Shown here piece by piece: positions 39-45,574 of a stretch of DNA of 64,000 nt. Source of the DNA: Balanoglossus misakiensis (taxonomy: Eukaryota; Animalia; Hemichordata); contig CM082588.2 of the NCBI GenBank assembly GCA_040954595.2, positions 8,354,844-8,418,843 of the forward strand. The letters run 5' to 3'. A program made the translations under genes and the position numbers. Below the pieces are notes generated by a model. That model was given only the letters and a program-made list of their open reading frames with translations. It was not told the DNA's origin and ran no database searches. How positions within the stretch are numbered: position 1 is the first letter of the stretch; each line of letters starts with the position of its first letter.

Positions 39-3000
39 CTTCAATGTTTTTGTCTACAGGTGGCACAATTGTAGTTTTCGTTTCCTGAAGTTCATCGATA
101 GTCTGACGTAACTGTCGGACGTTGTCTTTCAGCTTGGTATTTGTCGTGAGTAGTTTGGAACTTTGAGTTTCACTGCTTTCCAGCATTTCCTTCAGAAGCC
201 CACGTGACTGCTCACTTTCTTCACTTTTCCCCTTAAGGATCGTATATTCCATCTTCTTGGATTGTAGCAGTTCTCGAATCTCCTTGATTTCGTTAAAGAG
301 CGAAGTGATGACAGAGAGATAGTTGTCTGTCGAGATTTGTTCCAAAACACGAGCAGCTCCTTCTTTTGAAAAAGATTCCGCCAGAATCTTGTCCGACTCT
401 TTCGTGCCAGTGTTCAAGATGTTGACGCCATTTTGATTGACGAGTCTCTTCAGTTCTGATGAAATGTTATTAAACATAGTTTATAGCAAAATGTTATTTA
501 TGATCTATGATGTAATCCCCTTTGCAATTAATTGGTCGGAGGCCGTGGAATGCAAATAAATGGGCACTATCTATTTTACTTCACGCTCGATGTGCAAATC
601 AATGGCAGAATTGTACAGACCTATCTTTAAAATACTTCAACAAGCAGCCAACTAAACCAAAACATTCCCTTTAGAACAAATTTCAGCAGCAAGCTTATTT
701 ATTCTGATTAGTTGAATAGACTATTGTTTGGCCAAATTCCCTGTCTAAATGTTTGTGAACACTAACCTTCTCTTTCATATCTGAATGTCTCTCCCTCTGG
801 TAAGGTGATCGAAGACATCTGTTGGCTATCCAAAATCAAACACCGTCTGATTCCAAGGACACCAAGAACTTCTGGCCGTTCATCCAACAACGAAGACAAC
901 TGTAGAGGGTGCTGTATTTTTATCAACAGGACGATTGGTGTCTGTGTGTCTCCCACATCAACATCTATCTCAGCTTCCAAAGTGCCGGAACCACCAAGTA
1001 GTTTTGATAAACCGATTCTGTTTTGGCGTGTGGCATAGACAGACCTGTCAGTCTCCACGGCAACAACTGCGCTCTTGTCATCTACATTCACAAACGACAC
1101 AGAGAAAGGCTCAATAAATGATATGTATTCTCATAAAAGAGAATTTTTCAACAGAATTGTTTCTCCTGCTTGAATTCTGAAGTGCCTATGAAAAGAAAAC
1201 TGCACACTCATAGCATGTCAGCTAGAAACAAAAGCAGTCACAGAAACACTCAACTTGAAAAATAAGTCTTGCCCTATGCTGTCATATCCATAAATAGTAA
1301 TTACCTTGTTTAGTCAACATTTCTCCAGGTTCTGTACACTTTTCTCCACACAAACCACAGACCTCAGAAGATTTCACTTCCGGTACATAGCCTATCAAGA
1401 TTAAAGTTACGAATTCGTCATCTCATGACATATATTCTTGATATTAATTTGCAATGTTAACAATGATCCATAAGAACTTGATTGTACAAGTGAAAAGTTT
1501 TATAAGGGGTCGGTTCGTTTTGGCTAAAGTGCAATGCATTTACATGAATCTCTTTCAAATAGGCCTTAGGCATGGATACAGGAACTTGCACGTACACGTA
1601 TTCTGCTGAAAAAAACACACAACACAGATACGAGTCTAGAACTGAAATAAACCAAAGGTTTCAGGTAAAATCCTTCAATTCAAACGAATACACAATGTTC
1701 GGCAACATTAACTAAATTGTTAAAATATTAGACTTGCCTTCCTTGAAGTACTTCAATTCTGCCAGACATAGTTGATATCTCCATGTCTCTATGGTTGTCT
1801 TCAGGTTAACGTCAGATACATTGAGTTTGTGGAGCAATTCGGGTGTGATCATGTCTGCCTTAAACAGATCTCCCAGTATCCCTTGCCTGTAGTCACGCCA
1901 TAGTCTCTCCACTGACTTTGATGTCTGGCAAGTCAATACAACATTTACACTACCCCGCTTAATTTCTTCAATTTGTATGTTTCCAACACTGTTGAGATGC
2001 TCTTTGACTTTTGGTAAATCGTTTCCAGAGCTGCTGTTGTTGATGATCTCGTTTTCGATGAGTTCAACCTGGTCTGGAGTCAAGGTTGGACCAGACACCT
2101 TAAGCTTGACTACGATTTCTCCTGAAATAACATACAATGAGTACATTGTATTAGAATTGACATGTGTTGTACAGGATTCGAAGCAAGACCAATCACAAAA
2201 TTTCAAGGACTAAATCCACATCCGCAATGGATGTTTTAATTGCCCAGATAAGAATTAAGCGAGTCCCTATTAACTTGATCTAAACACAACACACAAACAA
2301 TACAAACAAACAAACAAACAAACACAAAACAAAACAACACAAAACAAAACAAACGCATAGACGAACATTTCCATTGCTCAACATGTGGAGAGACATCCTC
2401 GGGTACAAATGTGTTCTTAATTCAAACCTCATTTTGTTTCATTACACAATTGTATTCTACATCATATATTGGCAAATGCATCATCCAATTATATGACGAA
2501 CGATACAATAACAAGTATACAGGGACGAGTGAATATGAGCAACTATAGTTCCGTGCGTTAGCTCTCTGTGCAGGGGCCACATGAACTATTTCATTTGGTT
2601 TCCAATTTGAATATTGAATGAATATTGTTTTATAAGGACAGACAAGTAAATTTCACTAGGCGTACAAATGTACCCAATCAGCACCCTTACCCAGATTCGA
2701 GTTGAGAGTGTGTTGAACTTCATGCGTCTGTCCACTGTCAGGATTTTGCTGGCCACCTTCACCATTATTCAGATCACCATTTTTGGACTCGTTGTTGCTA
2801 GGGACATCTTGAACCTGCTTTTCTGCTTGGCTGCCACCAGAATTCACGGTTTGTTGGTCTTTAAGTGTTTCCTCCTTACCTAGTGCATAATAAAAATACT
2901 ACAACTTACAAAACTTGATTTTAGCTGTAATTTATTTATAAAACAGACTATCAATTCACCCAACAGCTGTAATATTTCTTAAGGTGACCATCATTTATTA

Positions 3001-4365
3001 CACTGTTTTGATTCACTTTAACGAACACATTTACCGTAGCCGTTAACTGGCAACACGTGATTCTGTTATCTGTTACCCTTCTATCTATTTGCATTTACCT
3101 TTGGGGGGCTCTTCTACTGGGTCGTCACAATCCCCAGGACAAGCAACACAACCAATGAGTTTCGTTTGGTTGTAAGATATAACACCATCCTCTGCCGATT
3201 TATGGAGTGCTGACTGCAATTCCTGTGATGTTTTCTTGGCGCGACCATATTCACTCAGAATCTCCATGATAGCACGTGCCCACTTTTCACTTCCGCTGTC
3301 AACATTTTCGTTTGGGCCCACGTCACAGTACGGTACACCAAATAAGGGGAAGTGTTCTTTTGTGAAGTTTGCGAAACCTGATTGCCTTGGCTGTACAGTG
3401 GGCACACCAGCAGCGCAGGATAGAAGACCAATCACACCAAATGGGTCGCCTTTAGTTGTGAAGTTTACCAGGATGTCACACTGTTTCAAGTCTTTCTTTA
3501 ACTGGTCTATCGATGTGTCGTTTGGATATAAATTGATCACTAACCAATCTGACTTCGCCATCGTCTCCAGCTGCTGCTGAATCTTCTTACATGATGTAGA
3601 CACTAAAAGTCCTTTGAACTTCCACTTTATTTTTCTTGCATAAAAGCTGTTGATGTAAGCAACCTTCTCCATGCCACGAGCTGCTGCTTGGAATTCCTCC
3701 AGATCTTGTAGGTTTGAAATCGTGTGTACAGATAAGACTTCAATAGTCTTACTTAAGTCTCTTTTGTTGAGCGAAATCTCGTCTACATCTTTCTTCATCC
3801 AAGGGATGTACAGAACATTCTCCACTTGTGAGTCTAGCAGAGCTCGAATCTTCATCTTCAACTCCTCATGTACTGTTGGTCCAACAGATAAAATGACAGA
3901 GGACGTCTCTGCATATTCCAGCATTTCATCATCTTTTGCAGCCAAGTCTAAAGGATCAAGGTTCATGTTTTCCGGTGTGTCAGAATAGACAGGAACAAAG
4001 TCCGCAGATGGGAAAACATTCGCTTGAATACTCCTTGCTGTACTGGCAGTTCCATCCTTACAAGCAGTACCGTATATGGTCGTAATTGGGCGATATTTCT
4101 TTAACTGTTGAAAATAGTGTTCGTGTAAAATTAACCAATCACTTGTCGGCTTCCCCTCTTTGATTGGGAGAATCAGCTCCACTCCATGACGCCTTGCTTC
4201 TTCAACTTCTTTGTCAGAAGCCTGTAACGCCATGAAGTAAACCTGGTTGTTTCCACCAGCAAGATCGATGGCCAATTGTCTCTCAGTAAGACATGTTGCA
4301 ATATTGCGACTTCTCGGCCACCACTCCTCTCCGACAACCAACAAACGATTCTTCACCTTTGCCAT
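39..4365 (-). CDS. Array copy 1 (partial, C-terminus outside window): GT4-like glycosyltransferase - linker - TRADD-N-like - CxxC mini-exon - domain X - coiled coil
   Basis: Exons 4365-3099, 2879-2691, 2121-1738, 1391-1305, 1081-767, 455-39. All have AG acceptors and GT donors (one GC), with phase-1 junctions and internal lengths divisible by 3. Paralogous to copies 2-4. The last donor (G|gtaatg) splices beyond position 1. Confidence 0.8.
1738..2121 (-). CDS. TRADD-N-like domain exon, copy 1
   Basis: 'IQIEEIKRGSVNVVLTCQTSKSVERLWRDYRQGILGDLF...LHKLNVSDVNLKTTI...Y..C..EL' matches the invertebrate TRADD-N-like pattern (GS-hydrophobic strand, LW.DY..G.L). 384-nt phase 1-1 exon. Confidence 0.7.
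2282..2352. repeat. (CAAA/CAAAA)n microsatellite in intron
   Basis: Direct reading of aaacaaacaaac... tract. Confidence 0.9.
3099..4365 (-). CDS. GT4/GT-B glycosyltransferase-like domain exon, copy 1 (422 aa)
   Basis: N-terminal 'RLLVVGEEWW...QLAIDLA' beta-alpha unit and C-terminal 'CDILVNFTTKGDPFGVIGLLSCAAGVP', which aligns to the GT4 'D-x-x-V-x-P-S-x-x-E-x-F-G-x-x-x-x-E-A-M-A-A-G-V-P' signature. The ORF-track GTG start lies in the intron; the ATG follows the acceptor ctcaattag|AA. Confidence 0.8.
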
Positions 4366-9624: not shown

Positions 9625-9897
9625 TTATTCCTGTTCAGATAACCTTGCTTTGTCCTCCTGTGCATACTTGGCCCATTTATACTCCTGACCACAGGCTTCT
9701 GTTATGTTTAGGTATTTCAGTGCATTGGCAGAGTCAATTTGTGCTTGGTAAACACGGGCAAGACTATAACATGCCCATAGTATTTAATATAGGTCACGGA
9801 GGGTGCTGATCAGATGGGTATACATTTCACATGCATCACTGTAGTTATTCAATAATGTGAGGACATGAACCATGAAAAGAGATGCGATGGGATACAA
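9625..9897 (-). pseudogene. Degenerate tandem duplicate of the last TPRs of the IFIT-like exon
   Basis: Reads LYPIASLFMVHVLTLLNNYSDACEMYTHLISTLRDLY*ILWACYSLARVYQAQIDSANALKYLN..., homologous to about 9985-10210, with one in-frame TAA. Confidence 0.8.
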
Positions 9898-9910
9898 TTA
9901 GTAATTTTCT

Positions 9911-11581
9911 TTATTGCTGATTGCAAAATTGGACCCGTTTCTTTTGTTGAGGGGGCTTTGTTTTCGCTTCCCGTGCCATTTTAGCCGAGGCATACTCCAG
10001 ACCACACTCTTCTGCTTTGTTTAGGTATTTCAGTGCATTGGCAGAGTCGCCTTTTGCTTGGTAAACGTGGGCAAGACAATAACACGCCCATGATATGTAG
10101 AATGGGTCACGGAGGGTGCTGATCAGATGGGTATATATTTCACATGCATCACTGTACTGTTTCAAGTGTGTGAGGGCAACGGCCTTCAAGATAGAAGCAG
10201 TGGGATACAAACCACCTGCATATGCAACTGCTTTGTCGGAACACTCTATGGCTTTTAGCAGGCACTGACGATTGCTTTCTATCGGATTGTGTTCGTATTT
10301 GGCCGCGTATGTGACTCCTAGGTTCCACGCGAAATATGGATTGTCTGGATCTTGTGCCGCAGCATTGTGAATAACTCGCTGTGCTTTTTCGAAGTCTCCA
10401 ACATTGCTGTGGCAGTAATAAAGACGTGCAAAAACCACCGTGAAATTGGATAAAGGGGTTAATTCGAGTGCTTTCTGAATGAGTTGACCTGCTTCTTCAT
10501 AGCGACCTTCATCGAGTGACAGATTACTTAAAAGTGCCAAAGCATAGCTGTGATTGGCATTTTTCTTAAGAACTCTCTCAAGCAAATTTCTTTCTTGTGC
10601 CATTATTTGTAAAGCTTCCTGACATTTTGAATCTCCATAGACACGAGCACGTTTTGCTAAAAGAATGAATGCTTGCCAAAGCATCCAGTCTGTTTGTTCT
10701 GGAAGTTCTACTAAAGCACGATCAAAGCTATCAATTGCCTCATCACACGTTTTTTTGTGAAAATAAGCAAGAGAGACACCCTTGTGAGCATATACATACG
10801 CTTTCTGTTTCCCTGACAATTTCTCAAGTGACAAAGTTGCTATCAACTTAAGCAATTCATCAACTCTGTCCATCTCACCCGACATGAAATGAACCCATGC
10901 TTTATCTGCAAGAAGAACCAACTTATCACCAAGTGGACCATCGTCGTCACCATCACAGCTGTCAAGTTCTTTCTGGTTGTCGGTGAGGGCGTCATCAAAC
11001 CACTTCAAAGCGGCACTTGGATCTCTCTTGTCTTCCGATCTCAGTTTTGACAAGTACATGTAACCTTTCATGGCTTTATGGGGAACTGGAGAGAACACCT
11101 GGTTGTGATGTTTAAGTCTGTCGTCCAATCTGCACTGTAAGAACTACAGTACATGGAAAGGCATGTTACAGTGTCATGTGAAAACCCAGGTGCTTGTACA
11201 GATGCTTTGTTGGTATTTTATTGATTGTTAAAAAGGTAGCTAAAAACGATAAGATCTCACGTCATACGAGCGCTCACGCTATGTTCGGGCCTATACCCCA
11301 CTGACACATAAACGGATATTTTTATGTTTCAATTTGCGTCATTATTAACATCTGAGAGGAATACACATTTCTTTGGTTTTCGTGACATTTCAACAAGTCA
11401 GATACAGCTGCTATGAACCGCTTTAAAATTTCATAAACCTATACTTCAAATACGCAAATAAATGTCCTCACCTCAAGACTCTCATCACAAAATTCTTCGA
11501 GTTTCCAGGTAAAGTGGCAGGGAAACCTCTGCAGTATTTCTTCATAGGACTTTGCTGTATGCTTCAATCCCGTGTGTGTAA
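9911..11581 (-). CDS. IFIT-like (interferon-induced tetratricopeptide repeat family) TPR module, two exons
   Basis: Carries the IFIT hallmark 'LQRFPCHFTWKL' (vertebrate IFITs have CHFTW) and 'LVLLADKAWVHFMSG' (cf. LVTxGNxAWVYYHMG), followed by multiple TPRs (e.g. 'YEEAGQLIQKALELTP'). Confidence 0.8.
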
Positions 11582-14500
11582 CTGAAAATTCTATTGAATA
11601 GTAAAAACAAAGTTTGGGTGATAAACTGATTTTAATTTTAAATTGAGATTGGTCTATTGAAAAAAAGCCTAGGCTTTTTTTATTATGGTATTCCAACATT
11701 CTGGGAGAGAATTGGGTTATATCAACCGGTGAATGACCTACTATTAAGCGCCAAAGCGTAAATTGTCACCCAAAAGAAACTAAAACAACCAAAATATCCG
11801 TCGTCAATATTGAGAGATTTCGTTCCTTCTGCTTTTTGAAGCGACACCCCCTTCGGAAAATCAGTTGAAAGTGACATAAACTAATAATTTAGTTTTAAAA
11901 TAAATATGCCTGACCATGTTAAGTATAATGATTTTGCAAGGAATGTCTATTGCAGGAAAGAGAAAAAAAACTGAAACGGAAGGTTTTCAGACCGAACTCT
12001 GAAATTCACTTTTGCTCCTAGACACAAGATTGTAATAGAAAATAAATACGGCCTATAATCGAACTTGTTGGGAGCACATTTTGTTTATTTGGAGCAGATG
12101 ATATAACGGATGGATGGATATGTTGCAGATAACTACATTACCTTCGATGTTTTTGTCTACAGGTGGCGCAGTTGTAGTTTTTGTTTCCTGAAGTTCGTCG
12201 ATAGTCTGACGTAACTGTCGGATGTTGTCTTTCAGCTTGGTATTTGTCGTGAGTAGTTTGGAACTTTGAGTTTCACTGCTTTCCAGCATTTCCTTCAGAA
12301 GCTCACGTGACTGCTCACTTTCTTCACTTTTCCCCTTAAGGATCGTATAATCCATCTTCTTGGATTGCAGTAGTTCTCTAATCTCCTTGATTTCGTTAAA
12401 GAGCGAAGTGATGACGGAGAGATAGTTGTCTGTCGAGATTGGTTCCAAGACACGAGCAGCTCCTTCTTTTGATAAAGATTCCGCCAGAATCTTGTCCGAC
12501 TCTTTGGTGCCAGTTTTCAAGATGTTGACGCCATTTTGATTGACCAATCTCTTCATTTCTGATGAAAATGTGATTTAACATAGTTAGCAAAATGTTATTT
12601 ATGATCGATGTGATGTAACCCCCTTTGCAATTGGGTCGGAGGTCGTGAAATGCAAATAAATGGGCACTATCTATTTTACTTTACGCTCGATGTGCAAATC
12701 AATGGCAGAATAGTACAGACCTATCTTTAAAGAATACTTCAACAAGCAGACATCTAGACCAAACCATTCCCTTTAGAACAAATTTTAACAGCAAGCTTAT
12801 TTGTTCTGATTAGTTGAATAGAGTATTGTTTGACCAACTTCCCTGCCTAAATGTTTGTGAACACTGACCTTCTCTATCATATCTAAATGTCTCTCCCTCT
12901 GGTAAGGTGATCGAAGACAACTGTTGGCTATCCAAAATCAAACACCGTCTGATTCCAAGGACACCAAGAACTTCTGGCCGTTCATCCAACAACGAAGACA
13001 ACTGTAGAGGGCGCTGTATTTTTAACAACAGTACGATTGGTGTCTGTGTGTCTCCCACATCAACATCTATCTCAGCTTCCAAAGTGCCGGAACCACCAAG
13101 TAGTTTTGATAAACCGATTCTGTTTTGGCGTGTGGCATAGACAGACCTGTCAGTCTCCACGGCAACAACTGCGCTCTTGTAATCTACATTAACAAACGAC
13201 GCAGAGAAAATCTCAATAAATGATATGTATTCTCATAAAAGAGTATTTTTTCAACAGTATTTTTTCTTCTGGTTGAATTCGTAAGTGCCTATGAAAAAAA
13301 ACACTTCAAACTCATAGCCTGTCAGCTAGAAACGAAAACAGTCATATGAACACTCAACTTGAAAAATAATTCTTGTTCTATGCTTTCATCCATAAATAAT
13401 TATTACCTTGTTTAGTCAACATCTCTCCAAGTTCTGTACAGTTTTCTCCACACAAACCACAGACCTCAGAAGATTTCACTTCCGGTACATAGCCTATAAT
13501 GATTAAAGTTACGAATTCGTCATGACATATATCGTTGATATCAATTTGCAATTTTAACATTGATCCATAAGAAATTGAGTGTACAATTGAAAATTTAGAC
13601 ATGGTGTCAGTTAGTGCAAAGCATTCACATGAAATTCACATGAAATCACTTTGAAATGGGTATGAATACAGGAACTTGAAAGTACACGTGTTCTGCTTGG
13701 GGAAAACACATAACACAGATACGAGTCTAGAACTGAAAATAACCAAAGGTTTCAGGTAAACTCCTTCATTTCAAACGAATACACAATGTTCGGCAACATT
13801 AACTAAATTGTTAAACTATTAGACTTGCCTTCCTTGATGTACTTCAATTCTGCCAGACATCGTTGATATCTCCATGTCTCTATGGTTGTCTTCAGGTTAA
13901 CGTCAGATACATTGAGTTTGTGGAGCAATTCGGGTGTGATCATGTCTGCTTTAAACAGATCTCCCAGTATCCCTTGCCTGTAGTCACGCCATAGTCTCTC
14001 CAGGGACTTTGATGTCTGGCATACCAATACAACATTCAGACTGCCCCGCTTGATTTCTTCAATTTGTATGTTTCCAACACTGTTGAGATGCTCTTTGACT
14101 TTTGGTAAATCGTTTTCAGAGCTGCTGTTGTTGATTATCTCATTTTCGATGAGTTCAACCTGGTCTGGAGTCAAGGTTGGACCGGATACCTCCAGGCTAA
14201 TCTCGATTTTACCTGAAATAACATCACTATATTAGATTCAATGTTTCTGGCTCTTTTTCTAAGTTACTAATTCAGAGTTACTTTTTCGAAATGAAGGTAC
14301 ACAATATGCAAAACGTCTGTTTATACAGTTTTAAAACTTCAATTATTTCAACTTTAATAACCCCTATCTATTTCATCTTCTGAAATAAGAATCTCCATTC
14401 CCATGATAGTCAGGAATGCGAAGGTCTTCAGTTATAGAGGAGAACCATTTGATTTCTGGAAAGAGGGTGGAGTATGTCACCAGCTTGTTCAGTCACTGTA

Positions 14501-16407
14501 GTCCTACGGCAGTTTTTTCGATTGTCTGTCTACCTTTTACTTCAAGGCAAGCCAGAAGCAAGTTCATTTCCTCATCATCATCTACCAACAATTCTTCCTC
14601 CAAAAAACCCCATCGTACCCTAGAAATCAAACGATTCTCCCCTTATTTGATTAATTGAAATGGCCGTCAATTAAACAACAGGATCTAGCCTACCCAGCTT
14701 AGATTTGAGAGTGTCTTCATGCGTTTGTCCAGCACCAGGATTTTGTTGGCCACCTTCACCAGTTTTATTCAAATCACCACTTTCTGGTCTATTGTTACTT
14801 GGGAGATCTTCAACCTGATTTTCTTTTTCTCTTCTACCGGAATTCGAGACTCGTTGTCCTTGGTCACGAACTGTTTCCTCTTCCCCTAGGGACGGATGTG
14901 AAAAACTCAGTTTACTATCACATTCACACTAATTGCACAAATGCTTCACATTTAAATTGATTCTGGTAAACCATTCAATTGCTTTTGTGTATTAAAATGC
15001 ATTTTATGCAACGGTAAATCACTGAGAGGCAAACATGCCGCTGTTAATATGTTAATATATTGTCATATTGTCATAACTGTGTATTGTCCAAAGCAACGTA
15101 TACAGTGCGTGCAACATTCTCTTTATCTATCGCTATTTACCCTTGGAAGGCTCTTCTGCAGGGTCATCGCATTCTGTAGGGCAAAATACACATTCCAACA
15201 GCTTGGTGTGATGGTCAGCAATAACACCACTCTCAGTGGATATTTGTAGTGCAGTCTTCAGGTCTTGTGCCGCATTCTTTGCACGGCCATATTCACTTAG
15301 GATATCCATGATAGCGCATACCCACTTTTCTTTTCCGCTGTCAATACTTTCGCTCGGTCCCACGTCACAAGTTTGTACACCAATGGAGGGGAAGTGTTCC
15401 TTTAGGAATGTTGCCAGACCTGATTGCTCTGGATGTAGTGTAGGCACACCAGCAGTGCAGGATAGAAGACCGAATACACCAAATGGGTCTCCTTTAGTTG
15501 TGCAATTTATCACGATGTCACACTGCTTCAAATCGTTCTCTAACTGGCTTATCGATGCGTTGTTTGGATACATGTGGATATTTAATCGATCGGACAGTGT
15601 CATCCTCTCAAGCCTCTGTTGACATTCCTCACACGGTTCAGAGGATACATATCCTCTTAACTTCCACTTGATTTTCGTAGAGAAATACTTGTATATGTCA
15701 GCAACTTTCCCCATGCCACGCGCTACTGCTTCGAATTCTTCCAGATCACGCAGCCCTGTTATGGTATGTACAGATAGGACATTGATGGTTTTACGTAAAC
15801 CGGTTTTATTCACGGAAAGATTGCCGACGTCTTTCTTCATGCAGGGAATGTATGCAACGTGCTCCACTTGTGAGTTTAGCAAAGGTTGAATCTTCACCTC
15901 AAACTCCTCATATACTGATGGTCCAACGGAGAGACTAACAGAGCACTTTTTTGCATATTCCAGCATTTCATCATCTTTGGCAGCCAAGTCTGAAGGATCT
16001 AGGTTCATGTTTTCCGGTGTGTCAGAATAGACAGGAACAAAGTCCGCAGATGGGAAAACCTCTGCCTGAATACTCTTTGCTGTACTGGCAGTTCCATCCT
16101 TACAAGCAGTACCATATACGGTCGTAATTGGGTGATATTTCTTTAACTGTTGAAAATAGTGTTCGTGTAAAATTAACCAATCACTTGTCGGCTTCCCCTC
16201 TTTGGTTGGGAGAATCAGCTCCACTCTATGACGCCTTGCTTCTTCAACTTCTTTGTCAGAAGCCTGTAACGCCATGAAGTAAACCTGGTTGTTTCCATCA
16301 GCAAGATCGATGGCCAATTGTCTCTCAGTAAGACATGTTGCAATATTGCGACTTCTCGGCCACCATTCCTCTCCGACAACCAACAGACGGTTCTTCACAT
16401 GTGCCAT
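9911..16407 (-). CDS. Array copy 2: GT4-like - TRADD-N-like - CxxC - X - coiled coil - IFIT-like TPR fusion protein (about 1331 aa)
   Basis: Exons 16407-15141, 14885-14694, 14212-13829, 13493-13407, 13183-12869, 12558-12142, 11581-11472, 11134-9911. Total 3996 nt, with every junction phase-compatible (…ATC GAA G|TT ACA…; CTT GAG|TGC AGA). Confidence 0.75.
13829..14212 (-). CDS. TRADD-N-like domain exon, copy 2
   Basis: 384-nt phase 1-1 exon, paralog of 1738-2121. Confidence 0.7.
15141..16407 (-). CDS. GT4/GT-B glycosyltransferase-like domain exon, copy 2
   Basis: 1267-nt coding exon with 'CDIVINCTTKGDPFGVFGLLSCTAGVP'. Near-identical to copy 4. Confidence 0.8.
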
Positions 16408-20660: not shown

Positions 20661-21203
20661 CAAGTAGGGTTGTGGCAAGATCGATTTGTCAAGTTCATCT
20701 TTATTTACATCATTTTGAGCGCTGAATGAGGTGCCTAAACACATATACTCCATGTGACCGGGTGTCTTGACACTGCCTTCTATAGGATTTGCATGACGGC
20801 GATTTTTTTATTAAATTGTTCATAACTTTGGTTTATTCATTGCCCGGTGTCACCAAAAACTAATTAGTTATTGCAATTCCAAAATAGAATCTGTGTACCA
20901 AAGCTAATCGAAATCTGATCAGTCGTTCTCTTGACATACGGTGCTAACAGGCAGACACAGACATATTGCAAACACATACACAGAGAACGCACGATAACAT
21001 CATCACTCACGTGAGGTAAACAAGGTGCGAGCTGTGTTAGAAGAAAATCTGGTCAACTAGAAAAGTAGGTTTTGCACTTAATTAGCATTAAGGGCTGTGG
21101 TAGCAGGAATGAAGTAAAACGTTACCATACCGAAAAATCCAATGGGGACAACCATTTGGAAAAAAAGTAGCAACAGGTACAAGATTGAGCTGTAGAACTG
21201 CAG

Positions 21204-25372: not shown

Positions 25373-25707
25373 CTATCTCTGAAAATGGCCTTTTATCCCA
25401 CGTCCCACGTCTGTTTGCAGTTCGTTTTCACACTCCTTCACCAATGAGACTAATGCTGGAAGTTCCATTTTTTGAAACAATTCTATTAGAAGTGTTAAAT
25501 CGTCATTGCTGATATGACCCTTCTCTTGCAAACAGTAAAATATATCTGAGGGAGATTTCAAATCATGTAATTCTCGTTTTGGTATGAAGTCTTCTCTTAA
25601 CAGGCCTCTGAGATCACGCTCATCATCACTTCTGTTTAAACGCTTCTCAAGTTTCATGAACAGGATCTTCAGTGGATTTAATTTTGTTGTTTTAAAACAC
25701 TGTGAGT
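25373..25707 (-). CDS. Death effector domain (DED) terminal exon, copy 3
   Basis: 'LKILFMKLEKRL...DLRGLLREDFIPKRELHDLKSPSDIFYCLQEKGHISNDDLTLLIELF..MEL..LV' follows the DED pattern (IP..L, D.F..L...G.IS..DL..L.ELF). Confidence 0.8.
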
Positions 25708-28700
25708 CTGTAATGATAATGTTAGTGTTAATGTTATATCATACTAAGGTAAACATAATATGCAAATTACAACTTTTTTTCTCAAATCTGATCTAATAGA
25801 CCATTTTGATATTCTGACATATGTAGCTTGTATGATTTTTTTTCCAGAGATTAAATCACATAAAAGTAGGTTTTAAAATTCCATGATTTAAATTAGTTAG
25901 TTTCATCCAAATTTCAGTGACCATTAAAGTTTATCCTCATAGATCTGCATAACTGTGAAACTGTCAAACCACAATTTGGAGTTGATACATATTGCAGTAG
26001 CATAACATCATGATACTTACCTCCATTCGAAGAGCTGCTACCAACTTGCCTCTCCTACATGAGAAAAAGAGACACCCAAGTCATAAATAACAGTGAAAGG
26101 GGAAAAAATGCAATATGTTTCAATTTTATAAAAAAAAATGTGCTTGAAAACTTTGCGGTTCTCATTACAGTGATTCCCCATGTCGGCCAAAACTGGCCAA
26201 TTATACTCAACCAAGTTGTTGAGTATTGAGACTTTCAGTAGTTGCCTAAACACATTCAATTCCAGATAAAATGCAAGACACTGGGTCTCCATGGGCAGGC
26301 AATGTACAGATTGGCACTGATAAAAGCTTAGCAATCATGGGTGAATAAATTGTGACGGGGCTGTGATGTGTGTGTGTGTGTGGGGGTGTGTGCACCAAGT
26401 GATTACAATGCATTACAATCACCTGGGCAATTGGCCACTGTACTAAGCCAACGACAGGAAAATGCACATACTCATGGTCCACATAAGATACATTGAAATG
26501 TGATAAATTGAACCCAAAACCTAAATTGAAAATTTTATGACTTGTAAGAATCAGATTACATGTACATGCTTTCTCTGCACTCACATCATACAGCACGGAC
26601 ATCTGTTTGTGGTACAACAATGTCATTTCAATTATTCACAAGCTAATACGTTTAGGTGGGTTCTTACATTTGGCATTGCGAATAACAGCTCAACAGTTGG
26701 TGGGTCATCATTTTTCTGAAACAGCATACGTCCTTGCAGACCACGACCTCCTGGCCTGGCTTTAACGACAACATCCCAGTGGTTATCACAAAATGGGTAG
26801 TATGGTCTCTTGTTCAGCACTGACTCCAGATCATAATTCCCTTCTGCGGGGACAGTATTTTTGACAACATCTCCGTATTTCAGCTCAATATCAGAACTGT
26901 ATGTTGTTCTTTTATCAGTGTATTGTTTATATTTCTCTTCAGTTTGTAATAAATCTGTAATGGATTCTTGTCCTTTGGCCTCCACCAAGTCACATCTTAA
27001 GACTGTTGCAGTATCCTTGTGCTCAAGAAGAAGAATCTTTACAATCTGATTTCCAGACTTCTTGAAGTCTGTGATGGTTGATAGCATGTAACAAATTCGT
27101 GGCATGACTTCTTTGATGTATCTTCCCAACGAATATCTGAAAACAATTCCAGACACTTTCAAGGAATGAAAATGGTGAAATGCAATTAGATGTTAATCAT
27201 AGATTACGGAAGGGGTGTGTTATATCACCATTACCTGTGGATACAATAACATCCAATCAAAGGAAGATTTCTTCCGTCAGAGCAATATCAACATAACTGC
27301 AGTCATTACATTGCATTTCCAAGACTATGATGGTGTATTTTTACAGAAGAAGACTTCAACCTACCCACTCAGTATCTGAGCGTGAAATTCCACCACATCG
27401 CGTTGTACAGTAAAAGAACAATCCTTGGTAACATCCTTCCAGTCACAATTACCATCTTCATCTTTAAGTATGCACAGTTCTGTATCATCAGATGCTACAC
27501 GTGGGATGTCTGGTGGCAGTGGGATGGTTACTTTTACAGGCTTCTTGAACTTCATTCTTTCCCTCTGGCCTCGATTGATATACACTATGGATGCGAAGGA
27601 CACATCGAGAGATTCTCCACCAGTTGGGAAGACACTATCAACTGTGTTATAGCGACAGTCATGGACCTTCAATACGAACAATAAGCCTCATTGAATGTTG
27701 TCACTATAGCAGTACATACATGGATACCTGGCTGAATTATCTCCTGTCTAAGAGTTTAACTGCTTATGGCTGCAATTTGGCACAATCAATCAATCAATCA
27801 ACTGATGCAGGCCCATGCAGCTCCTTCTTAATCCATTGTCATGTTAATCTCTATGTGGGGTAATACCAGGTATGGGTAAATGTTGGTGGTTGTGGGGATG
27901 ATGATGATATTTACCTCTAATATCATAGCCTTTTCATCTTCTACGGCATCTTCTGGAACAACGATGCTTATCCGTTCGTCTTTTTTTGAGGTAAATTTTC
28001 CACCTTCTTTGCTGATATCAAATGTGTCTTTATAAGGTCTTGAAATTGCGATGTAAAATGAAAAATGGCAGACTTCTACCTTGATATGATTGTCTTCCTG
28101 AATATGAATCAACATTTAATGGTAACACTTTTACTTTTTGTGTGTGGTCAGAATCTTCGTGAACAACTTATTAGCACTCCGAAGATTTAAACCAGAGAAG
28201 CTACACAAACGTGTAAAAGGCTTGGGTCAGCAGGTCTCCGCAGCCTTTTCAACTCTTGTGGAACATAAAAAGTCACACCGCCATTTTGGTCGTTGGACAA
28301 CGGACAAAACATGGCTGGTGTGGTTCCACATCGAGGCTCACGTGGAATTTGAATGTTGGTGTAAATCCTTGTATTAAGGCACATCAACAACAAAGCAAAT
28401 ATACTCCAATTGGACAAAACCAAGGTGGAAAAGTGTTATTTGTTAGAAACAGAAACATTTTCTCAGAGACGGTGTTTTGTTTTGCCAAATGGAAGGTCAG
28501 TAGGCTGCAATGACTGACAATTTACATGTCCATGGATACATACATGCACATACCTATACTAATATATATTTACTGAAATGCAATAATGGTCGAGTTATAC
28601 GTAGTAAAACTTCACTGTGTAGATCTGTGCTGTAGCATACTTACTTTGACAGTTTTCAACTCTTCCCATGTTTCACCAGTTTTGCTTGTCAGGATGATCT

Positions 28701-31700
28701 GTTCTCTCTCAAACGGCTGAACATTTAAACACTTCCTCACAAGGTAGACTGGTTTCTTTAGTGTAATGTGATCTGCCTTAATATCAAGGACATCTGACTG
28801 ATACCATTCAAAGTCTGCAAGAGGGACCTTGGTGACGTTATGGTTACATGTGACCGACAATGTTGTGTCTTCTTCCACACATGCTGGCGGGACCTCGAGT
28901 GAAAATCCACATGGTAATTTGTAGGAACGTCTTTCCTTTAATGGAAAAGGAAAACATTGCATTACAAAACCAGAAATGGGGCTGGAAATCACACCCCCCC
29001 CTCCCCATTGAAGGCTAAAATGTAACTAAATTCTGTCATAAAACTCGAATGCATTTGCAAGCAAAAGCGAAGCTCCAGAGACCAGATCTATTTTATATAA
29101 TATTTCAAGGCCTTAAAAATGAACAGTTTGAATAGAAAAAGCAATGCGTATACGCTAACCTGCCGGGTGCATGCACTGTTGCAAGCTGAAAATAGTACAT
29201 ATCATAGTTTCACAACTTGTAGATGTCCATTGAAAATTGTTTTAACCCATCTAGAATACTGTTTCAATACAATTTATCAACATAATCAGTACGTGTGGTC
29301 TGCATTGCAAACAACCTATTTAGAAAAAATACAAAATTATAAAAATACACCGATTTTAAGTCAATCATCATGCCTACCTCATTAGCAGCAATAAGCTGAA
29401 TCGATCTTTGGTCTTGAATATCCTCTGAAATGCAGATATGTTAGGGTAGTAGTTGTATTTACTAAGATGTGATTACTGTTCATGTTTTAACATAAATCAA
29501 GCTTGAAATTGTAAATTTCTCTGGTTTCAAGTCTCTGAGACTTACATGTTTTTTTACACTCGATATGCAATGACCTTCTACATATTTCTGCACATCATAA
29601 TACCCTATAGACTTTTTTATTATTTGCGAATTGATCTGTTAAAAATGCAGAATAAAACATCCACTTTTTGAAATAAACATTTCTGTAGTAATTACTGAGC
29701 TCAGAATCCCCTCAAAGTATATATTTTCAGAAAGATTAGATATAGGGAAACATTTTGGTTATTTCAGTGTGATCATTATTTTAACAACTATCACAATCAT
29801 AACAAATGGATTAGGCCGGATTAGAATATGTCAATACACAAAAGTGACTGGAATATACATCACATCACATCACATCGCATCATGTCACATCACATCACAT
29901 GTATAGCACAATTATTTCGCAATGAACTTAAATTACTGGCAAGAAAAACAAAGTGAAACGCAATGTTTTTGATTGACTCTGTACTTAATTTTTGCTCATG
30001 GACCCCACCGTATACTGTAATAGAAGAACACTCAGTTCCCAGCCTTCGATGGTCAAGTATATTGTCAGAATTGAAGATATAGGCAACACCAATCTGATTA
30101 AAATCAGATGAGAAGATACAATGTAGGCGCTAGTGATCGTTTTGGTTGTTCTATTCTCACGGATTTGGCTGTTCTGTTCTCTGCGTAACCAGTCTTGGCT
30201 ATTCTCGGGTGTACGCGCCATTCGAACAGAACAGCCAACCCTAGATCTACATACCTTCGATATTTCTAACTACGGGTGGCGCATTTCCATCTTTTAGTTC
30301 GATATTTGTCATTGTTTGTTTGTTTAGAACTTTGGTTTTCACTGCTTGCCAGCATTTCCTTCGGATGCTGACATGTATGGAAATTTAGGTACAGTTACCA
30401 TGGTAAACTTGAGATCTAGCCAATCACAGATTTTCAGTGGGTGGCACACTAAAAAAAAGAGCGCCACCATATATTCTTTAGAACGTTCAAATACACCATT
30501 TCAGCCATATATGGGCGTTTGTAAATTGGAGGTGACTGTATACCTTTATATTCCGTCTTCCTGGATTGTAGCAGTTCTCGAATCACCTTGATTTCGTTAA
30601 AGAGCGAAGTGATGACGGAGAGATAGTTGTCTGTCGAGATTGGTTCCAAAACACGAGCAGCTCTTTCCTTTGAAAAAGATTCCGCTAGAATCTTGTCCGA
30701 CTCTTTGGTGCCAGTGTTCAAGATGTTGACTCCACTTTGATTGATAAGCCTCTTCAGTTCTAATGAAGATAGTAACATGTGATTCAACATTGTTATCAAA
30801 ATGTTATTTATTCTCGATATGCAAATCAATGGGAGAATAGTGCAAACCTCTCTCTAAGATCATAATTCCACATGCAAGCAATTTTCCCAAAACAATTCAT
30901 TTAGAAGAATTTTCAGCAGTAAGCTTACTTAATTTAAAACTATTATGTTGGCAGTTTGTGGACCTATTTCAGTGAGCAAACTATCAGAGATCATTTTTTG
31001 AACGAAAGGTAAATATTCTAAATTTAACTACCAGCTACATGTATGTAGTGAACACAGCTTTGTAAATACATTGGTAATCAAGGAATCCAGGAGTCTTCAT
31101 CGTTAACAAGAGTTCATTCATTTGTAGAATGAACTATTGTTTGGCCAAATTCCCTGCTCTACGATTTTTCTGTTAAAAGGAATGTTTGTGAACACTGACC
31201 TTCTCTATCATATCTGAATGTCTCTCCCTCTGGTAAGGTGATTGAAGACAACTGTTGGCCATCCAAAATCAAACACCGTCTGATTCCAAGGACACCAAGA
31301 ACTTCTGGCCGTTCATCCAACAACGAAGACAGCCGTAGAGGGCGCTGTATTTTTACCAACATTACAACTGGTGTCTGTGTGTCTCCCACATCAACATCTA
31401 TCTCAGCTTCCAAAGTGCCAGAACCACCAAGTAGTTTTGATAAACCGATTCTGTTTTGGCGTGTGGCATAGACAGACCTGTCAGTCTCCACGGCAACAAC
31501 TGCGCTCTTGTCATCTACATTCACAAACGACGCAGAGAAAGTCTCAATAAATGATATGTATTCTCATTAAAGAGAATTTTTCAACAGTATTTTTTCTTCT
31601 GGTTGAATTCTTAAGTGCTAATGAAAAAAATCTTCAAACTCATGGCCTGCCAGCTAGAAACAAAAGCAGTCATACAAACACTCAACAATAATTCTTGCCA

Positions 31701-34700
31701 AATGCTGTCATCCATAAATAGTAATTACCTTGTTTAATCAACATCTCTCCAGGTTCTGTAAACTTTTCTCCACACAAACCACAGACCTCAGAAGATTTCA
31801 CTTCCGGTACATAGCCTATAATAATTAAAGTTACGAAATCGTCATGACATATATCGTTGAACGCATTTGCAATGTTAACATTGATCCATAAGAACGTGGG
31901 CGTACAATTGAAAAGTTTGACAAGGTGTCAGTTAGTGCAAAGCATTCACATGAAATACACATGAAATCACTTGAAATGGGTGTATGAATACAAGAACTTG
32001 AAAGTACACGTATTCTGCTGAAAAACACACACAACAAAGACACGAGTCTGCAATTGAAAATAACCAAATGTTTCAGGTAAACTCCTTTAATTCAAACAAA
32101 TACTCAACGCTTGGCAACATTAACTAAATTCTTAAACTATTAAACTTGCCTTCCTTGAAGTACTTCAATTCTGCCAGACATAGTTGATATCTCCATGTCT
32201 CTATGGTTGTCTTCAGGTTAAAGTCAGACACATTCAGTTTGTAGAGCAATTCGGGTGTGATCATGTCTGCCTTAAACAGATCTCCCAGTATCCCTTGCCT
32301 GTAGTCACGCCATAGTCTCTCCACTGACTTTGATGTCTGGCAAGTCAATACAACATTTTCACTACCCCGCTTGATTTCTTCAATTTGTATGTTTCCAACA
32401 CTGTTGAGATGCTCTGTGACTTTTGGTAAATCGTTTTCAGAGCTGCTGTTGTTGATTATCTCGTTTTCAATGTGTTCAACCTGGTTTGGACTCAAGGTTG
32501 GACTGGATACCTTAAGCTTAACAACGAGTTTGCCTGAAATAACAATATATTGGATCTAAATCAGTCGAACATACACATAGTCACATGTTCAGGTACGGCG
32601 CGACAAGTGTTTCAAAATTATTTATCATTATTTTATAGAAAATTGATGTCTTTTAACAAAAAAATACGTAAAAACACAAAAAACTGATTGGTGGTTTAAA
32701 AAACAACGAGTGTAAAAAGTAATCCATCGTGGAGTCAAAAAAAAAAAAAAAAAAAAAAAAAAAACTAACACACACAGAAGAAAATCTCACCTGTTGTCAA
32801 AAAAACCCCACCAAGCTTACCAAAAAAACCGTCCACAAGGCAGTTGCAAAAAAAATCACTTATTTTTTATTTGTCACAAAAAAACCACGCGCACATTTTT
32901 CACGAAAAACGCACACTTCACCCCCACAAAAAATAAACACACAAAGTATTAAAAAGAACACTCTTTGAAAAAAAAGAGAGACTACAACTTGAAAAAAATG
33001 CACACCCCCAGAACAAACAACACAGGCAAACATAGAAAAAACACGAACATGTTAGCCATAAAAAACGGAGATATTTGTCACCGAAAAAAACCCGCACTCA
33101 TGTCACCCCAAAACTAACTGGCCACTTTACAAAACGCAGATGCACTGAGGTTGCAAAAATAAGCACAGGCAATTTGAAAAAAAAAACGCACAGCAATTTG
33201 CAAAAAAAAAAAAAAAAAAATAGGAACATTTGTCACCCATTTTGCAAATGCTCTGCGTTTTTTTTTCAAAGTGCCTGTTTTTTTGGGTTACAAATGTTCC
33301 TATTTTTTTTTTTTTTTTTGCAAATTGCTGTGCGTTTTTTTTTCAAATTGCCTATGTTTTTTCGGGGGATTAAAAATGTGCTTATTTTTGCAACCTCAGT
33401 GCATCTGCGTTTTTTTAAAGTGGCCCGTTGTTGTTGTTGTTTTTTGACTCCACGATGGATTACTTTTTACACTAGTTGTTTTTTAAACCACAAATCAGTT
33501 TTTTGTGTTTTTTTACGTATTTTTTTGTTAAAAGACATCAATTTTCTATAAAATAATGATAAATAATTTTGAAACACTTGGCGCGCCGTAGTACCACACC
33601 TGAAAAAGTCATCGATTTTGGGTGTTTTTGGACGCACTCTTCCACCGGTATCGCTTCTTAGCACGACGAAAACCGAAAAAACGATCCGTCACACTGTGCG
33701 GAAGTGCGTTCTCAACAAGCAGGTCAAATTTGACTGGCGTACGTGGCCTATGAAAAAAGCCTTAGGGATTTTCGTGAACGGTACAAAATCTCTGTGTACA
33801 AAACATTGGATTTTTAGCGTTCGATCCAGTTACTGTGGTTACAGGACGCGCACGCTATCGCTGACCGCTGCTTTGCCGTATTAGCGTGGCGGCCTATGGC
33901 CGGGCGGTAGCTGCCGTAAACATACTCGGACAGGGGGTGTGCACACAATCGTGTGTATTTTTAACTAGTTACAAGCCCCTTGTCGGACGTTCATAACGGT
34001 TTCGATCAAAATTGAGTGTAGTGTCCTATAAAGGCCCATAGCAACGAGCAAAAAGATCCCGGGGACCCATCTTAAAACAGTCAACAGATCTGGCGTTGCG
34101 AATCACAGGCGGCAGCGAATTCCACAGAGCAGGTGCACAAACAGAGAATGCTCTCTGCCCATATGCCTTATTAAAGTTTCCACGAGGTGGCACCAACCGC
34201 AAAGAGTCAGCTGATCTGAGATCTCTGACAGGGGTGTAACTTTCAAGCAAATCGATTAAATAAAGTGGTGCAAAGCGATGAATGATTTTATAGATAGTTA
34301 ACAAAATTTTGAATTTGATGCGAGCTATGCCTACGCGCAGAACGCAAACTGGTAAACTGGGCGTATGTGTCTCTTCCCATGGGATTACATTTAAAATGGC
34401 TAGAAAACTTAATTTTACTATTGTCATTTTCATGATTTTTTTTCACATAGCTAAGTCAAGTAAAAATAAATTCATTTGTCAAATAAAATCGTATTGTCAC
34501 CGCACTGTTTTGAGATAAATTTATTGCATATTTTTTCCCATAGACAAACTATTTGTGAAAAAATGCTGACTCGGCAATTTTTTTCTATTATCGACTAAAT
34601 TCATGGCTCTGTATTTCAAAAACAAGCACGGTGATCCCTATATTTTATTACAGATTTTCATTATACACACAAAGGAGAATCCAGAAATCCAAAATTAAAA

Positions 34701-36554
34701 GAAAGGACTATACTTTAAATTCTACTGATCGTACATTGGTACCAATTTTAGAGTTGTTTGTAAAAGTCATATCAAGAAATTCATCTGTATAATAAGGACC
34801 AGGAATATGGAGGGGACGTATAGTCAAGTTACCCGGATTTAAGTTGAGAGTTTGTTGATCTTCCTGCATCTGTCCACCGCCGGGATTTTGCTGTCCGACT
34901 CCACCAGTATTCAGATCACTACTTTCGGACCCGTTGTTGCTAGGGACATCTTGGACTTGCTTTTCTGTTTGGCTGCTACCGGAATTCAAGGCTTGTTGTC
35001 CTTTGTAAGGAAATGTTTTCTCTTCTCCTAGTGACAGGTGTGAAATTAGTACTAGAATTTACCATCACCTTTCAATTTAATCTACATAAACACTTCAAGC
35101 GCAAATTGATTTTGGTAAAACCTTTAATAGCTCTTGTGTATTGAAATGCTTTTTATCACTACGCTGCAACAATTAATCTTTGAGTGGCAAAATAAGTCTG
35201 GCAATTTACTGTGTTTCGTTAAAAAGGATCGAATAATGTTTCTATAAAAAATATACATAATCGTCTCCTTTATGTATCACCACTTACCTTTGGAAGGCTC
35301 TTCAGCAGGGTCATCACATTCTGTAGGACAACGTACACTTTTCAAAAGCTTCTTGTGGTGCTCAGCAATAACACCATTCTCAGCAGATATGTGCAGTGCC
35401 GTCTTCAGTTCTTGTGCCGCATTCTTTGCACGGTCATAATCACTTAGGACGCCATTGACAGCACGTGCCCACTTTTCACTTCCGCTCTTCACGTTTTCGT
35501 TTGGTCCCACGTCACAGTAGGGTACACCGAGTAAGGGGAAGTGTTCTTTTGTGAAGTTTGCAAGACCTGATTGCCTTGGCTGTACAGTGGGCACACCAGC
35601 AGCGCAGGATAGAAGACCAATCACACCAAATGGGTCGCCTTTAGTTGTGAAGTTTACCAGGATGTCACACTGCCTCAAGTCTTTCTTTAACTGATTTATT
35701 GGTGTGTCGTTTGGGTATAAATTGACAATTAACTGATCTGACTCAGCCATCGTCTCAAGCTTCTGCTTACAAGTTCTGCTTACAAATTCTGACGCTATAA
35801 ATCCTTTGAACTTCCACTTTGTGTCTCTGGGAATATAACTGTACGCGTAAGCAAGTTTCCCCATGCCTCGAGCTGCTGCTTCGAATTCCTCCAGATCCTG
35901 TAGGTCTGATATTGTGTGCACAGATAAGACTTCAACAGTCTTTAAGTCTCTTTTCTTGAGCGAAATCTCGTCTACATCTTTCTTCATCCAAGGAATGTAC
36001 AGAACATTCTCCACTTGTGAGTCTAGCCTAGCTCGAATCTTCATCTTCAATTCCTCATGTACTGTTGGGCCAACAGATATAATGACAGAGGACGTATTTG
36101 CATATTGCATCATTTCATCTTCTTTAGCAGCCAAGTCTGAAGGATCTAGATTCATGTTTTCCGGTATGTCAGAATAGACAGGAACGAAGTCCGCAGATGG
36201 GAAAACCTTTGCTTGAATACTCTTTGCTGTACTGGCAGTTCCATCCTTACAAGCAGTACCGTATATGGTCGTAATTGGGTGATATTTCTTTAACTGTTGA
36301 AAATAGTGTTCGTGTAAAATTAACCAATCACTTGTCGGCTTCCCCTCTTTGATTGGGAGAATCAGCTCCACTCCATGACGCCTTGCTTCTTCAACTTCTT
36401 TGTCAGAAGCCCGTAACGCCATGAAGTAAACCTGGTTGTTTCCATCAGCAAGATCGATGGCCAATTGTCTCTCAGTAAGACATGTTGCAATATTGCGACT
36501 TCTCGGCCACCATTCCTCTCCGACAACCAACAAACGATTCTTCACCTTTGCCAT
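25373..36554 (-). CDS. Array copy 3: GT4-like - TRADD-N-like - CxxC - X - disrupted coiled coil - ZU5-ZU5-UPA-DED (possibly a pseudogene or rescued by a cryptic donor)
   Basis: Exons 36554-35288, 35027-34833, 32533-32150, 31815-31729, 31514-31200, 30759-(30544?), 29185-29160, 28935-28645, 28097-27915, 27666-27365, 27136-26668, 26054-26021, 25707-25373. The coiled-coil exon is interrupted by about 170 bp of foreign DNA and a 4-bp frameshift. Confidence 0.65.
26668..28935 (-). CDS. ZU5-ZU5-UPA (PIDD/ankyrin/UNC5-like) exons, copy 3
   Basis: ZU5 motifs 'GFSLEVPPACV...SDVLDI...TLKKPV', 'W.EL', 'VCHFS', 'GGKFTS...ISIVVPEDAV', 'FKKPVKVTIPLP...WKDVT', followed by a beta-rich UPA-like exon. Confidence 0.75.
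28178..28445. repeat. About 270-bp templated insertion copied from the array's upstream block (19087-19357 type)
   Basis: cgaagatttaaaccagagaag...ggacaaaaccaaggtggaaaagtgt matches 19087-19357 and 38757-39027. It is absent from the same intron in copy 4 (about 45845). Confidence 0.85.
29855..29900. repeat. (CACAT)n microsatellite; expanded paralog at 47289-47362
   Basis: Direct reading. Confidence 0.9.
32150..32533 (-). CDS. TRADD-N-like domain exon, copy 3
   Basis: 384-nt phase 1-1 exon, paralog of 1738-2121. Confidence 0.7.
32594..33590. mobile_element. About 1-kb foldback/MITE with roughly 140-bp TIRs and an A-rich/T-rich interior
   Basis: TACGGCGCGACAAGTGTTTCAAAATTATTTATC...CGTGGAGTCAAAA is inverted at 33441-33590. 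A second internal inverted pair lies at about 33120-33240 and 33290-33425. Confidence 0.8.
34026..34325 (-). mobile_element. 3' fragment of an L2/Crack-type LINE ORF2
   Basis: 'RIKFKILLTIYK...APLYL.DL...Y.P.R.LRS...GQRAFSVCAP.LWNSLP..IR' is a typical LINE ORF2 C-terminus. Confidence 0.8.
35288..36554 (-). CDS. GT4/GT-B glycosyltransferase-like domain exon, copy 3
   Basis: 1267-nt coding exon. The middle resembles copy 1 and the C-terminal tail resembles copies 2 and 4. Confidence 0.8.
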
Positions 36555-42998: not shown

Positions 42999-43336
42999 TT
43001 AATCTATCTCTGAATATGGCCTTTTTTTCCCACGTCGTTTTTCTGATTGCAGTTTGTTTACACACTCCTCCACCAATGAGACTAATGCTGGTAGTTCCAT
43101 GTTTTGAAACAATTCCTTTAGAAGTGTTAAATCGTCATTGCTGAAATGACCCTTCTCTTTCAAACAGTAAAATATATCTGAGGGAGATTCCAAATCCTGC
43201 AATTCTCGTTTTGGTATGAAGTCTTCTCGTAACAGGCCTCTGAGATCACGCTCATCCTTTCTGTTTAAACGCTTGTCAAGTGTCATGAAAAGGATATTCA
43301 GTGGATTTAATTGTGTTGTTTTAAAACACTGTGAGT
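42999..43336 (-). CDS. DED terminal exon, copy 4
   Basis: Paralog of 25373-25707, with the basic tail KRRGKKRPYSEID. Confidence 0.8.

Positions 43337-45543: not shown

Positions 45544-45574
<31 letters not shown>

Follow-up and report, generated by a model that had tools for sequence, protein, structure and literature searches.

Proteins in which a GT4 domain precedes TRADD-N have been described in hemichordates, where the C-terminal domains are variable and immune roles have been proposed (Kaur et al. 2021, PMC8195603). For the Saccoglossus GT4-TRADD-N proteins of that work, the tails are given as Bcl-2, TM plus LRR, ankyrin or none, and TTC28-like TPR and UPA-ZU5 are named among the TRADD-N partners; its main text holds no match to 'IFIT', and a GT4-TRADD-N protein with a TPR or a ZU5-DED tail is absent from its Saccoglossus rows, as far as the 30 of 60 listed for supplement 4 and all 11 of supplement 6 go. 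As for the origin of such architectures, the joining of exons between adjacent duplicated genes has been identified as the main route of domain gain, of which direct examples were rare as of 2010 (Buljan et al. 2010, PMC2926785). Uniform phase-1 introns across a cluster of paralogs, a signature of exon shuffling, are likewise found for the sponge aggregation factors, which are extracellular and for which shuffling is described as deduced from the phase bias rather than from a mapped junction (PMC5400394). With respect to the tails, phylogenetic analysis is reported to have placed the IFIT-like TPR hits of acorn worms outside the IFIT family (Liu et al. 2013, PMC3688568).

The 64-kb window studied here (the whole stretch of DNA that was analysed; GC, 37.8%) contains a spliced gene cassette in four copies, all on the same strand, and resembles the lineage-specific expansions of invertebrate GT4-TRADD-N (DEDD2 clade) presented by Kaur et al. 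2021 (PMC8195603). The account given there is one of protein architectures, not DNA junctions, whereas here a junction can be read in the DNA: copy 4 is likely a fusion gene, the intron of which at 54050-53554 joins the introns of two paralogs at 53716/53711. The array is likely to consist of immune genes. Its main features, with gene models predicted from splice motifs and homology, are as follows.

39..4365 (-): copy 1 cassette, of CC-A type and with an open frame; the tail falls outside the window
12142..16407 (-): copy 2 cassette, matching PF20706 and, under its cut-off, PF20694
16407-15141, 14885-14694, 14212-13829 and 13493-13407 (-): GT4, linker, TRADD-N-like and small exon of the copy 2 cassette
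13183-12869 and 12558-12142 (-): D and CC-A exons of copy 2
25373..36554 (-): copy 3, with a single D-CC pair followed by X'
54051..60404 (-): 5' cassette of copy 4, with GT4, linker, TRADD-N-like, small, D and CC-A exons

The exon order in the cassette is GT4, linker, TRADD-N-like, small exon, D and coiled-coil (CC), and all introns from GT4 to the tail are in phase 1. The gene models of copies 2 and 4 are intact ORFs of 1,331 and 1,682 aa, which end in a TPR module and in a ZU5-ZU5-UPA-DED module (X'), respectively. The GT4 exon belongs to the GT4-conflict domain family according to Pfam (PF20706, E 3.6e-34; 118.8 bits with a cut-off of 26), and the TRADD-N-like exon that follows it gives a below-threshold match to PF20694 (21.5 bits with a cut-off of 23.7; E 2e-4). 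For the D exon, the ESM Atlas returned no usable match and Pfam only a weak, chance-level one, and D is treated as an unnamed domain. In all four copies the donor of the TRADD-N exon is GC (a GC-AG intron; positions 13828, 1737, 32149 and 55933). Upstream of copy 1, the match to the other copies ends at 5786, and the 3.8 kb from there to the IFIT end (5786-9582) are unique within the window.

The closest named relatives are proteins of the acorn worms Ptychodera flava (P0002 and P0011) and Glandiceps talaboti (P0001), so that the source is likely an enteropneust. The copy 2 intron leads to an IFIT-like TPR module, as the earlier note had it, which consists of two exons.

11472..11581 (-): IFIT-like exon 1, phase 1 in and phase 0 out, with a CHFTW motif; aligns with P0001, P0002 and P0011
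9911..11134 (-): IFIT-like exon 2 with the stop; TPR repeats (Pfam TPR_16, E 8e-16)

The combination of a TPR array with an N-terminal CHFTW motif is homologous to vertebrate IFIT. The best natural match is that of residues 1157-1520 of P0001 with residues 7-365 of human IFIT5 (3zgq; E 4e-10), an alignment that begins at CHFTW and extends for approximately 360 residues; the TPR exon of the window alone reaches only E 2.7e-4, with IFIT2. Vertebrate IFITs are stand-alone proteins encoded essentially by one coding exon in what is described as a two-exon layout (PMC3688568), whereas the tail of copy 2 is fused C-terminally, comprises two coding exons and has its TPR part split by an intron. By sequence, the label 'IFIT-like' is justified for this tail, and it is applied here short of membership in the IFIT family. 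A tandem duplication (9582-10210, 77% identical) affects the final approximately 315 bp of the IFIT-like exon, and the frame stop at 9911 makes copy 2 shorter than P0001.

In copy 4, the intron after the CC-A exon was thought at first to lead to X'. It leads instead to a second pair of D and CC exons, and X' starts at 46850, behind another intron.

51580..53553 (-): D' (53553-53239) and CC-B (51936-51580), which form the second D-CC pair of copy 4; each is phase 1-1
42999..46850 (-): X' of copy 4, in frame and colinear with the ZU5-Death/DED proteins P0013-P0017 and P0019
46850-46804 (-): short exon of X'
46353-46063, 45763-45581 and 45296-44995 (-): ZU5-like exons
44760-44292 (-): UPA-like exon
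43683-43650 (-): linker
43336-42999 (-): DED exon

The order ZU5-ZU5-UPA-death-fold emerges from colinear tblastn matches to P0013-P0017 and P0019, with Pfam ZU5 in five of these proteins; the DED was recognized in the corresponding exon of copy 3 (PF01335, E 4e-10), and 'UPA', which gave no Pfam match, is assigned by its position after two ZU5. None of eight relatives of the UPA exon matches any exon of the cassette: they are fronted by LRR, CARD or FN3, or are short (three of the eight, with 223-472 aa, which may be fragments). Thus, X' was likely captured from a gene with LRR, CARD or FN3 in front, as far as these sequence relationships can tell. The tail of copy 4 is colinear with LRR/CARD-ZU5-Death/DED proteins and in this recalls PIDD-like LRR-ZU5-Death proteins; both these and the vertebrate IFITs differ from the proteins of the window, in which the tails are fused behind GT4-TRADD-N-D-CC. 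The intron between CC-B and X' of copy 4 harbours a 3.9-kb foldback element (47593-51455), the arms of which measure 1.2 kb (93%) and enclose tandem repeats of 168/169 bp. Inverted-repeat elements are also found in the introns at 52104-52961 and 32594-33590 (32-bp perfect ends; 163-bp arms, 94%), the former being an 858-bp element between D' and CC-B of copy 4.

The introns that follow the first CC exon in copies 2 and 4 can be divided as follows.

11810..12141 (-): 5' part of the copy 2 post-CC intron, common to copy 4 (53716-54050)
11582..11809 (-): 3' part of the copy 2 post-CC intron, leading to the IFIT-like exons and probably unrecombined parent sequence
53716..54050 (-): 5' half of the copy 4 hybrid intron, of IFIT-type (CC-A) origin
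53711..53716 (-): junction, where the parent types, read by eye, agree at 6/7 bases
53554..53711 (-): 3' half of the copy 4 hybrid intron, from an intron preceding a D' exon

The homology between the two introns, on which the earlier note was built, holds: from their donors (12141 and 54050, respectively), 283/331 positions are identical (score 452), a score equalled by none of 300 shuffles. The divergence inside the intron is equally real, although it had been set at 11835 and the similarity actually stops at 11810/53716, about 25 bases further on, after softening in the final 25 bases before the end of the homology. Beyond this point, the resemblance between 11582-11809 and 53553-53715 is that of chance (251/300 shuffles score as high), and 11582-11809 of copy 2 has no other match within the window. 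By contrast with an ordinary unequal crossover, which was considered for the junction and rejected as the parents are non-homologous past it, the copy 4 intron is made of two parts with different parents and has the same phase (1) on both sides of the join, with the frame kept, as in exon shuffling; the long parental homology of non-allelic homologous recombination was not found there. The 3' half (53709-53591) exceeds shuffled sequences in three of four pairwise comparisons with ordinary pre-D introns (0, 1, 0 and 27 of 300 shuffles as high), and a profile of four pre-D introns finds in copy 4 only a 22-nt core (2.8 bits, with 3/500 shuffles higher), values that hint weakly at homology with ordinary pre-D introns.

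The two parent types were traced in contigs from three runs (X1, X2 and X3) of one public sample, which is possibly the window's own source; 20 of 295 contig pieces and 14 of 64 loose ends were listed for copy 4, and 24 of 3,217 pieces for copy 2. Among the matches listed, D' contigs leave copy 4 at 53711 in two of the three runs (X1 record 4 and X3 record 18), no more than 5 bases from the point at which the similarity to copy 2 stops, and their upstream intron differs from that of copy 4 beyond this position. Coming from the other side, listed loose ends at 53733 and 53737 run on, as read by eye, in copy-2-like sequence. The product itself is bridged by X1 record 5 (53515-53780, six differences) and X2 record 11 (53602-53780, no difference), each with more than 31 letters on either side of the junction. 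With regard to copy 2, X3 record 17 joins the IFIT exons to the post-CC intron. A contig about 90% like copy 2 carries the IFIT exons and the intron up to 11662, with rows of the same depth that reach 11870 at the right spacing, and likely crosses 11810 as copy 2 does. Loose ends at 53825, initially taken as a possible third type of tail, match the start of an insertion in the CC exon of copy 3 at 26/28 positions by eye and are read as a transposon insertion.

The D' side of the junction differs by approximately 4% from unjoined D' contigs (nine letters over 53485-53711; 19/419), the CC-A side by 15% from copy 2 and approximately 12% from two listed contigs, and the carriers of the junction among themselves by at most approximately 2%. 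The join is young relative to the 38% protein identity with Ptychodera, and closer donors may exist among the unlisted rows; 'recent', the word used for it before, is bounded by these sequence differences only.

The direction of the event can be judged from the outgroup proteins. P0001, P0002 and P0011 all have the order GT4, TRADD-N-like, D, CC and CHFTW-TPR, so that three of three proteins from outside the window with D-CC continue into the CHFTW-TPR module, a count biased to TPR tails as two of the three came from searches that started from the TPR exon. A single block of alignment between copy 2 and P0002 spans the CC-IFIT join (148-1105, 38.7%), and copy 2, P0001, P0002 and P0011 can be aligned residue by residue at the join itself, which is also present in the diverged paralog contigs and is not confined to copy 2. 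Longer GT4 proteins were not found among 5,210 candidates, in a search insensitive enough to pass over the existing P0001, P0002 and P0011; a further search able to reveal other tails also missed P0001. Since the layout of copy 2 is colinear with the Ptychodera and Glandiceps proteins, IFIT is likely to be the old tail and a stand-alone donor becomes unnecessary; and since the points at which the two parent types part from copy 4 lie within approximately 5 bases of one another, a single junction in copy 4 explains everything, while copy 2 needs none. By these comparisons, copy 2 is likely the parent type and copy 4 the recombinant, and the GT4-TRADD-N-D-CC-IFIT-like TPR layout would be older than the split of Ptychodera and Glandiceps from this species. 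P0001 (1,613 aa) has two D-CC pairs before its IFIT-like tail, 70% identical over 190 aa; together with copy 4, it suggests a recurrent or concertedly evolving duplication of the unnamed domain. The gene model of P0002 ends in the start of another GT4 domain (residues 909-1024), which suggests a tandem array in Ptychodera too.

The earlier note had thus seen a true intronic junction and ascribed it to the wrong copy. Read in that way, copy 4 would be the parent, and copy 2 would recently have gained IFIT from a stand-alone donor at about 11835. The sharp end of the homology and the 96% identity of the GT4 regions of copies 2 and 4, despite their different tails, would fit such a gain, which nevertheless appears very improbable by taking into account that two further genera have kept the CC-to-IFIT join, that contigs of paralogs, about 90% alike, likely run through the site in the manner of copy 2, and that the 3' half of the copy 4 intron has a parent of its own. 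The last point also makes it hard to believe that no recombination occurred and that intron decay, an indel or a transposon remnant merely ends the alignment. The introns of the array are indeed rich in insertions, and the softening of the similarity over the final 25 bases is what decay might leave, but the sequence past 53716 belongs before another exon and has its own unjoined counterpart. An assembly chimera of similar paralogs at 53716 is to be feared in so repetitive a family, for which two runs yielded 1,615 and 1,504 small contigs on 12 kb; that two contigs bridge the junction, that the frame stays open and that the join lies in non-homologous sequence, where switches by an assembler should be rare, leaves little room for it.

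The strongest rival, improbable as it also seems, is an old duplication of D-CC within one gene, by which the junction would be ancient and the CC-A intron would have been kept 85% like that of copy 2 through conversion from IFIT-type paralogs, stopping where the homology ends. Conversion is evident in the array, and three markers have a similar, old divergence (the 5' ends of D and D', identical at 45/59 positions; the pre-D introns, approximately 70-72% in local alignments; and the CC-A/CC-B intron, 94/123). The two D-CC pairs of Glandiceps P0001 point in the same direction, the protein being aligned with copy 4 in a single block (9-1119, 30%). However, the D' contigs have another intron upstream of exactly 53711, which would require a second event at the same spot. 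The D domains group by species in a tree, against an old duplication, although concerted evolution gives the same tree. Even with such a duplication, the junction would still be that of copy 4, not of copy 2.

For the favoured fusion of two paralogs in copy 4, the following course can be proposed. The 5' half of an IFIT-type post-CC intron would have been joined to the 3' end of a pre-D' intron by deletion or mis-repair between two paralogs on the same strand; if a deletion fused an IFIT-type gene to a D' gene lying downstream, exactly the observed structure would result. As long homology between the parents is lacking at the join, it would not be the product of an ordinary unequal crossover. 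The 6/7 common bases, read by eye from proxies of the parents (P = 0.0026, for one register and uncorrected), suggest microhomology-based end joining or template switching, with a short microhomology likely to have guided the joining. The fusion would have dropped the IFIT-like tail and brought in D'-CC-B-ZU5-ZU5-UPA-DED and, as both sides are in phase 1, the reading frame of the product is kept. Further mixing of the cassette is ascribed to gene conversion or unequal crossover.

Sequence comparisons within the array do indicate that segments are mixed between copies. At informative sites of GT4 and TRADD-N, copies 1 and 3 stand against copies 2 and 4 (130/135), while in the D-CC intron copies 1 and 2 stand against copies 3 and 4 (64/66), and copy 4 switches from copy-2-like to copy-3-like between 55943 and approximately 54930, in homologous sequence approximately 1-2 kb upstream of the junction. 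The cassettes of copies 2 and 4, previously regarded as near-identical, are so in GT4 (1220/1267, confirming their common subtype) and TRADD-N (96%), but not in the D-CC intron (146/236), the CC exon (372/417) or the post-CC intron (85%). Copies 3 and 4 do combine a common C-terminus (UPA exon, 463/469; ZU5a, 280/291) with different cassette subtypes (GT4, 1045/1264).

In copy 3, the CC exon is CC-A-like at 14/17 sites and then CC-B-like at 17/21, with the switch near 30554-30516, and this pattern makes a homologous crossover within the CC exon the likely origin of the copy. The exon has an excess of 148 nt and a frame stop at residue 852, X' itself being open. It is broken by an insertion with short inverted ends (approximately 30370-30520), a 4-nt indel is present as well, and the same element is present at 53825 in contigs of other paralogs; the insertion resembles a mariner-like MITE. 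The intron that leads to X' in copy 3 contains an older trace.

29898..30025 (-): stretch of the copy 3 intron before X', with homology to 12040-11915 of copy 2 (94/123; 0/300 shuffles)

From this match, the IFIT and ZU5 tails would have diverged earlier behind a common CC intron; past 11915, the old CC-A/CC-B intron similarity is at chance level in ten of ten tests (69-189 of 200 shuffles as high). Elsewhere in the window, ORF pieces at 21189-23210 (+) and 34026-34442 (-) resemble remnants of LINE reverse transcriptases, with no Pfam match for the two tested. Another sharp junction is found at the copy 4/copy 3 boundary (40308), which lacks approximately 1.8 kb that the boundary between copies 3 and 2 contains (20667-22441).

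With respect to what was known, the family and its variable tails have been described (PMC8195603), and the new element is a junction mapped to approximately 5 bases with both parent types traced; a literature search that took in few subscription papers found no account of this junction, nor of a fusion of GT4 with IFIT. The event shares with those discussed by Buljan et al. 2010 (PMC2926785) the gain of a terminal module after duplication, by recombination or deletion between neighbours. It differs in that recombination apparently made the new intron directly, a route judged there to be less likely than juxtaposition followed by splicing, and in that the junction can still be read. The case clearly illustrates a process that was known, as was the family in which it took place, and the surprise is moderate.

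Domain shuffling in the immune families of marine invertebrates has mostly been deduced from protein architectures, and here one event is readable in DNA. As the product is available together with both types of parent, the junction offers a marker of PCR size for the age, frequency and polymorphism of such fusions. By analogy, the predicted effect on the protein is that one and the same GT4 enzyme would be connected to an IFIT-like TPR sensor in copy 2 and to a PIDD-like death-fold signalling tail in copy 4. More speculatively, and with rather low confidence, the array may be a germline system of tail swapping, in which a constant GT4-TRADD-N-D-CC core is repeatedly rewired by means of a single family of phase-1 introns and two junctions (the old one from IFIT to ZU5 and the younger one at 53716) lie in layers, and the ancestral form of which would be an IFIT homolog older than the vertebrates, sensing viral RNA and directly gating a glycosyltransferase effector. 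At least three lineages have an IFIT-homologous TPR module attached to a GT4-TRADD-N protein, which bears, in turn, on the origin of the vertebrate IFITs.
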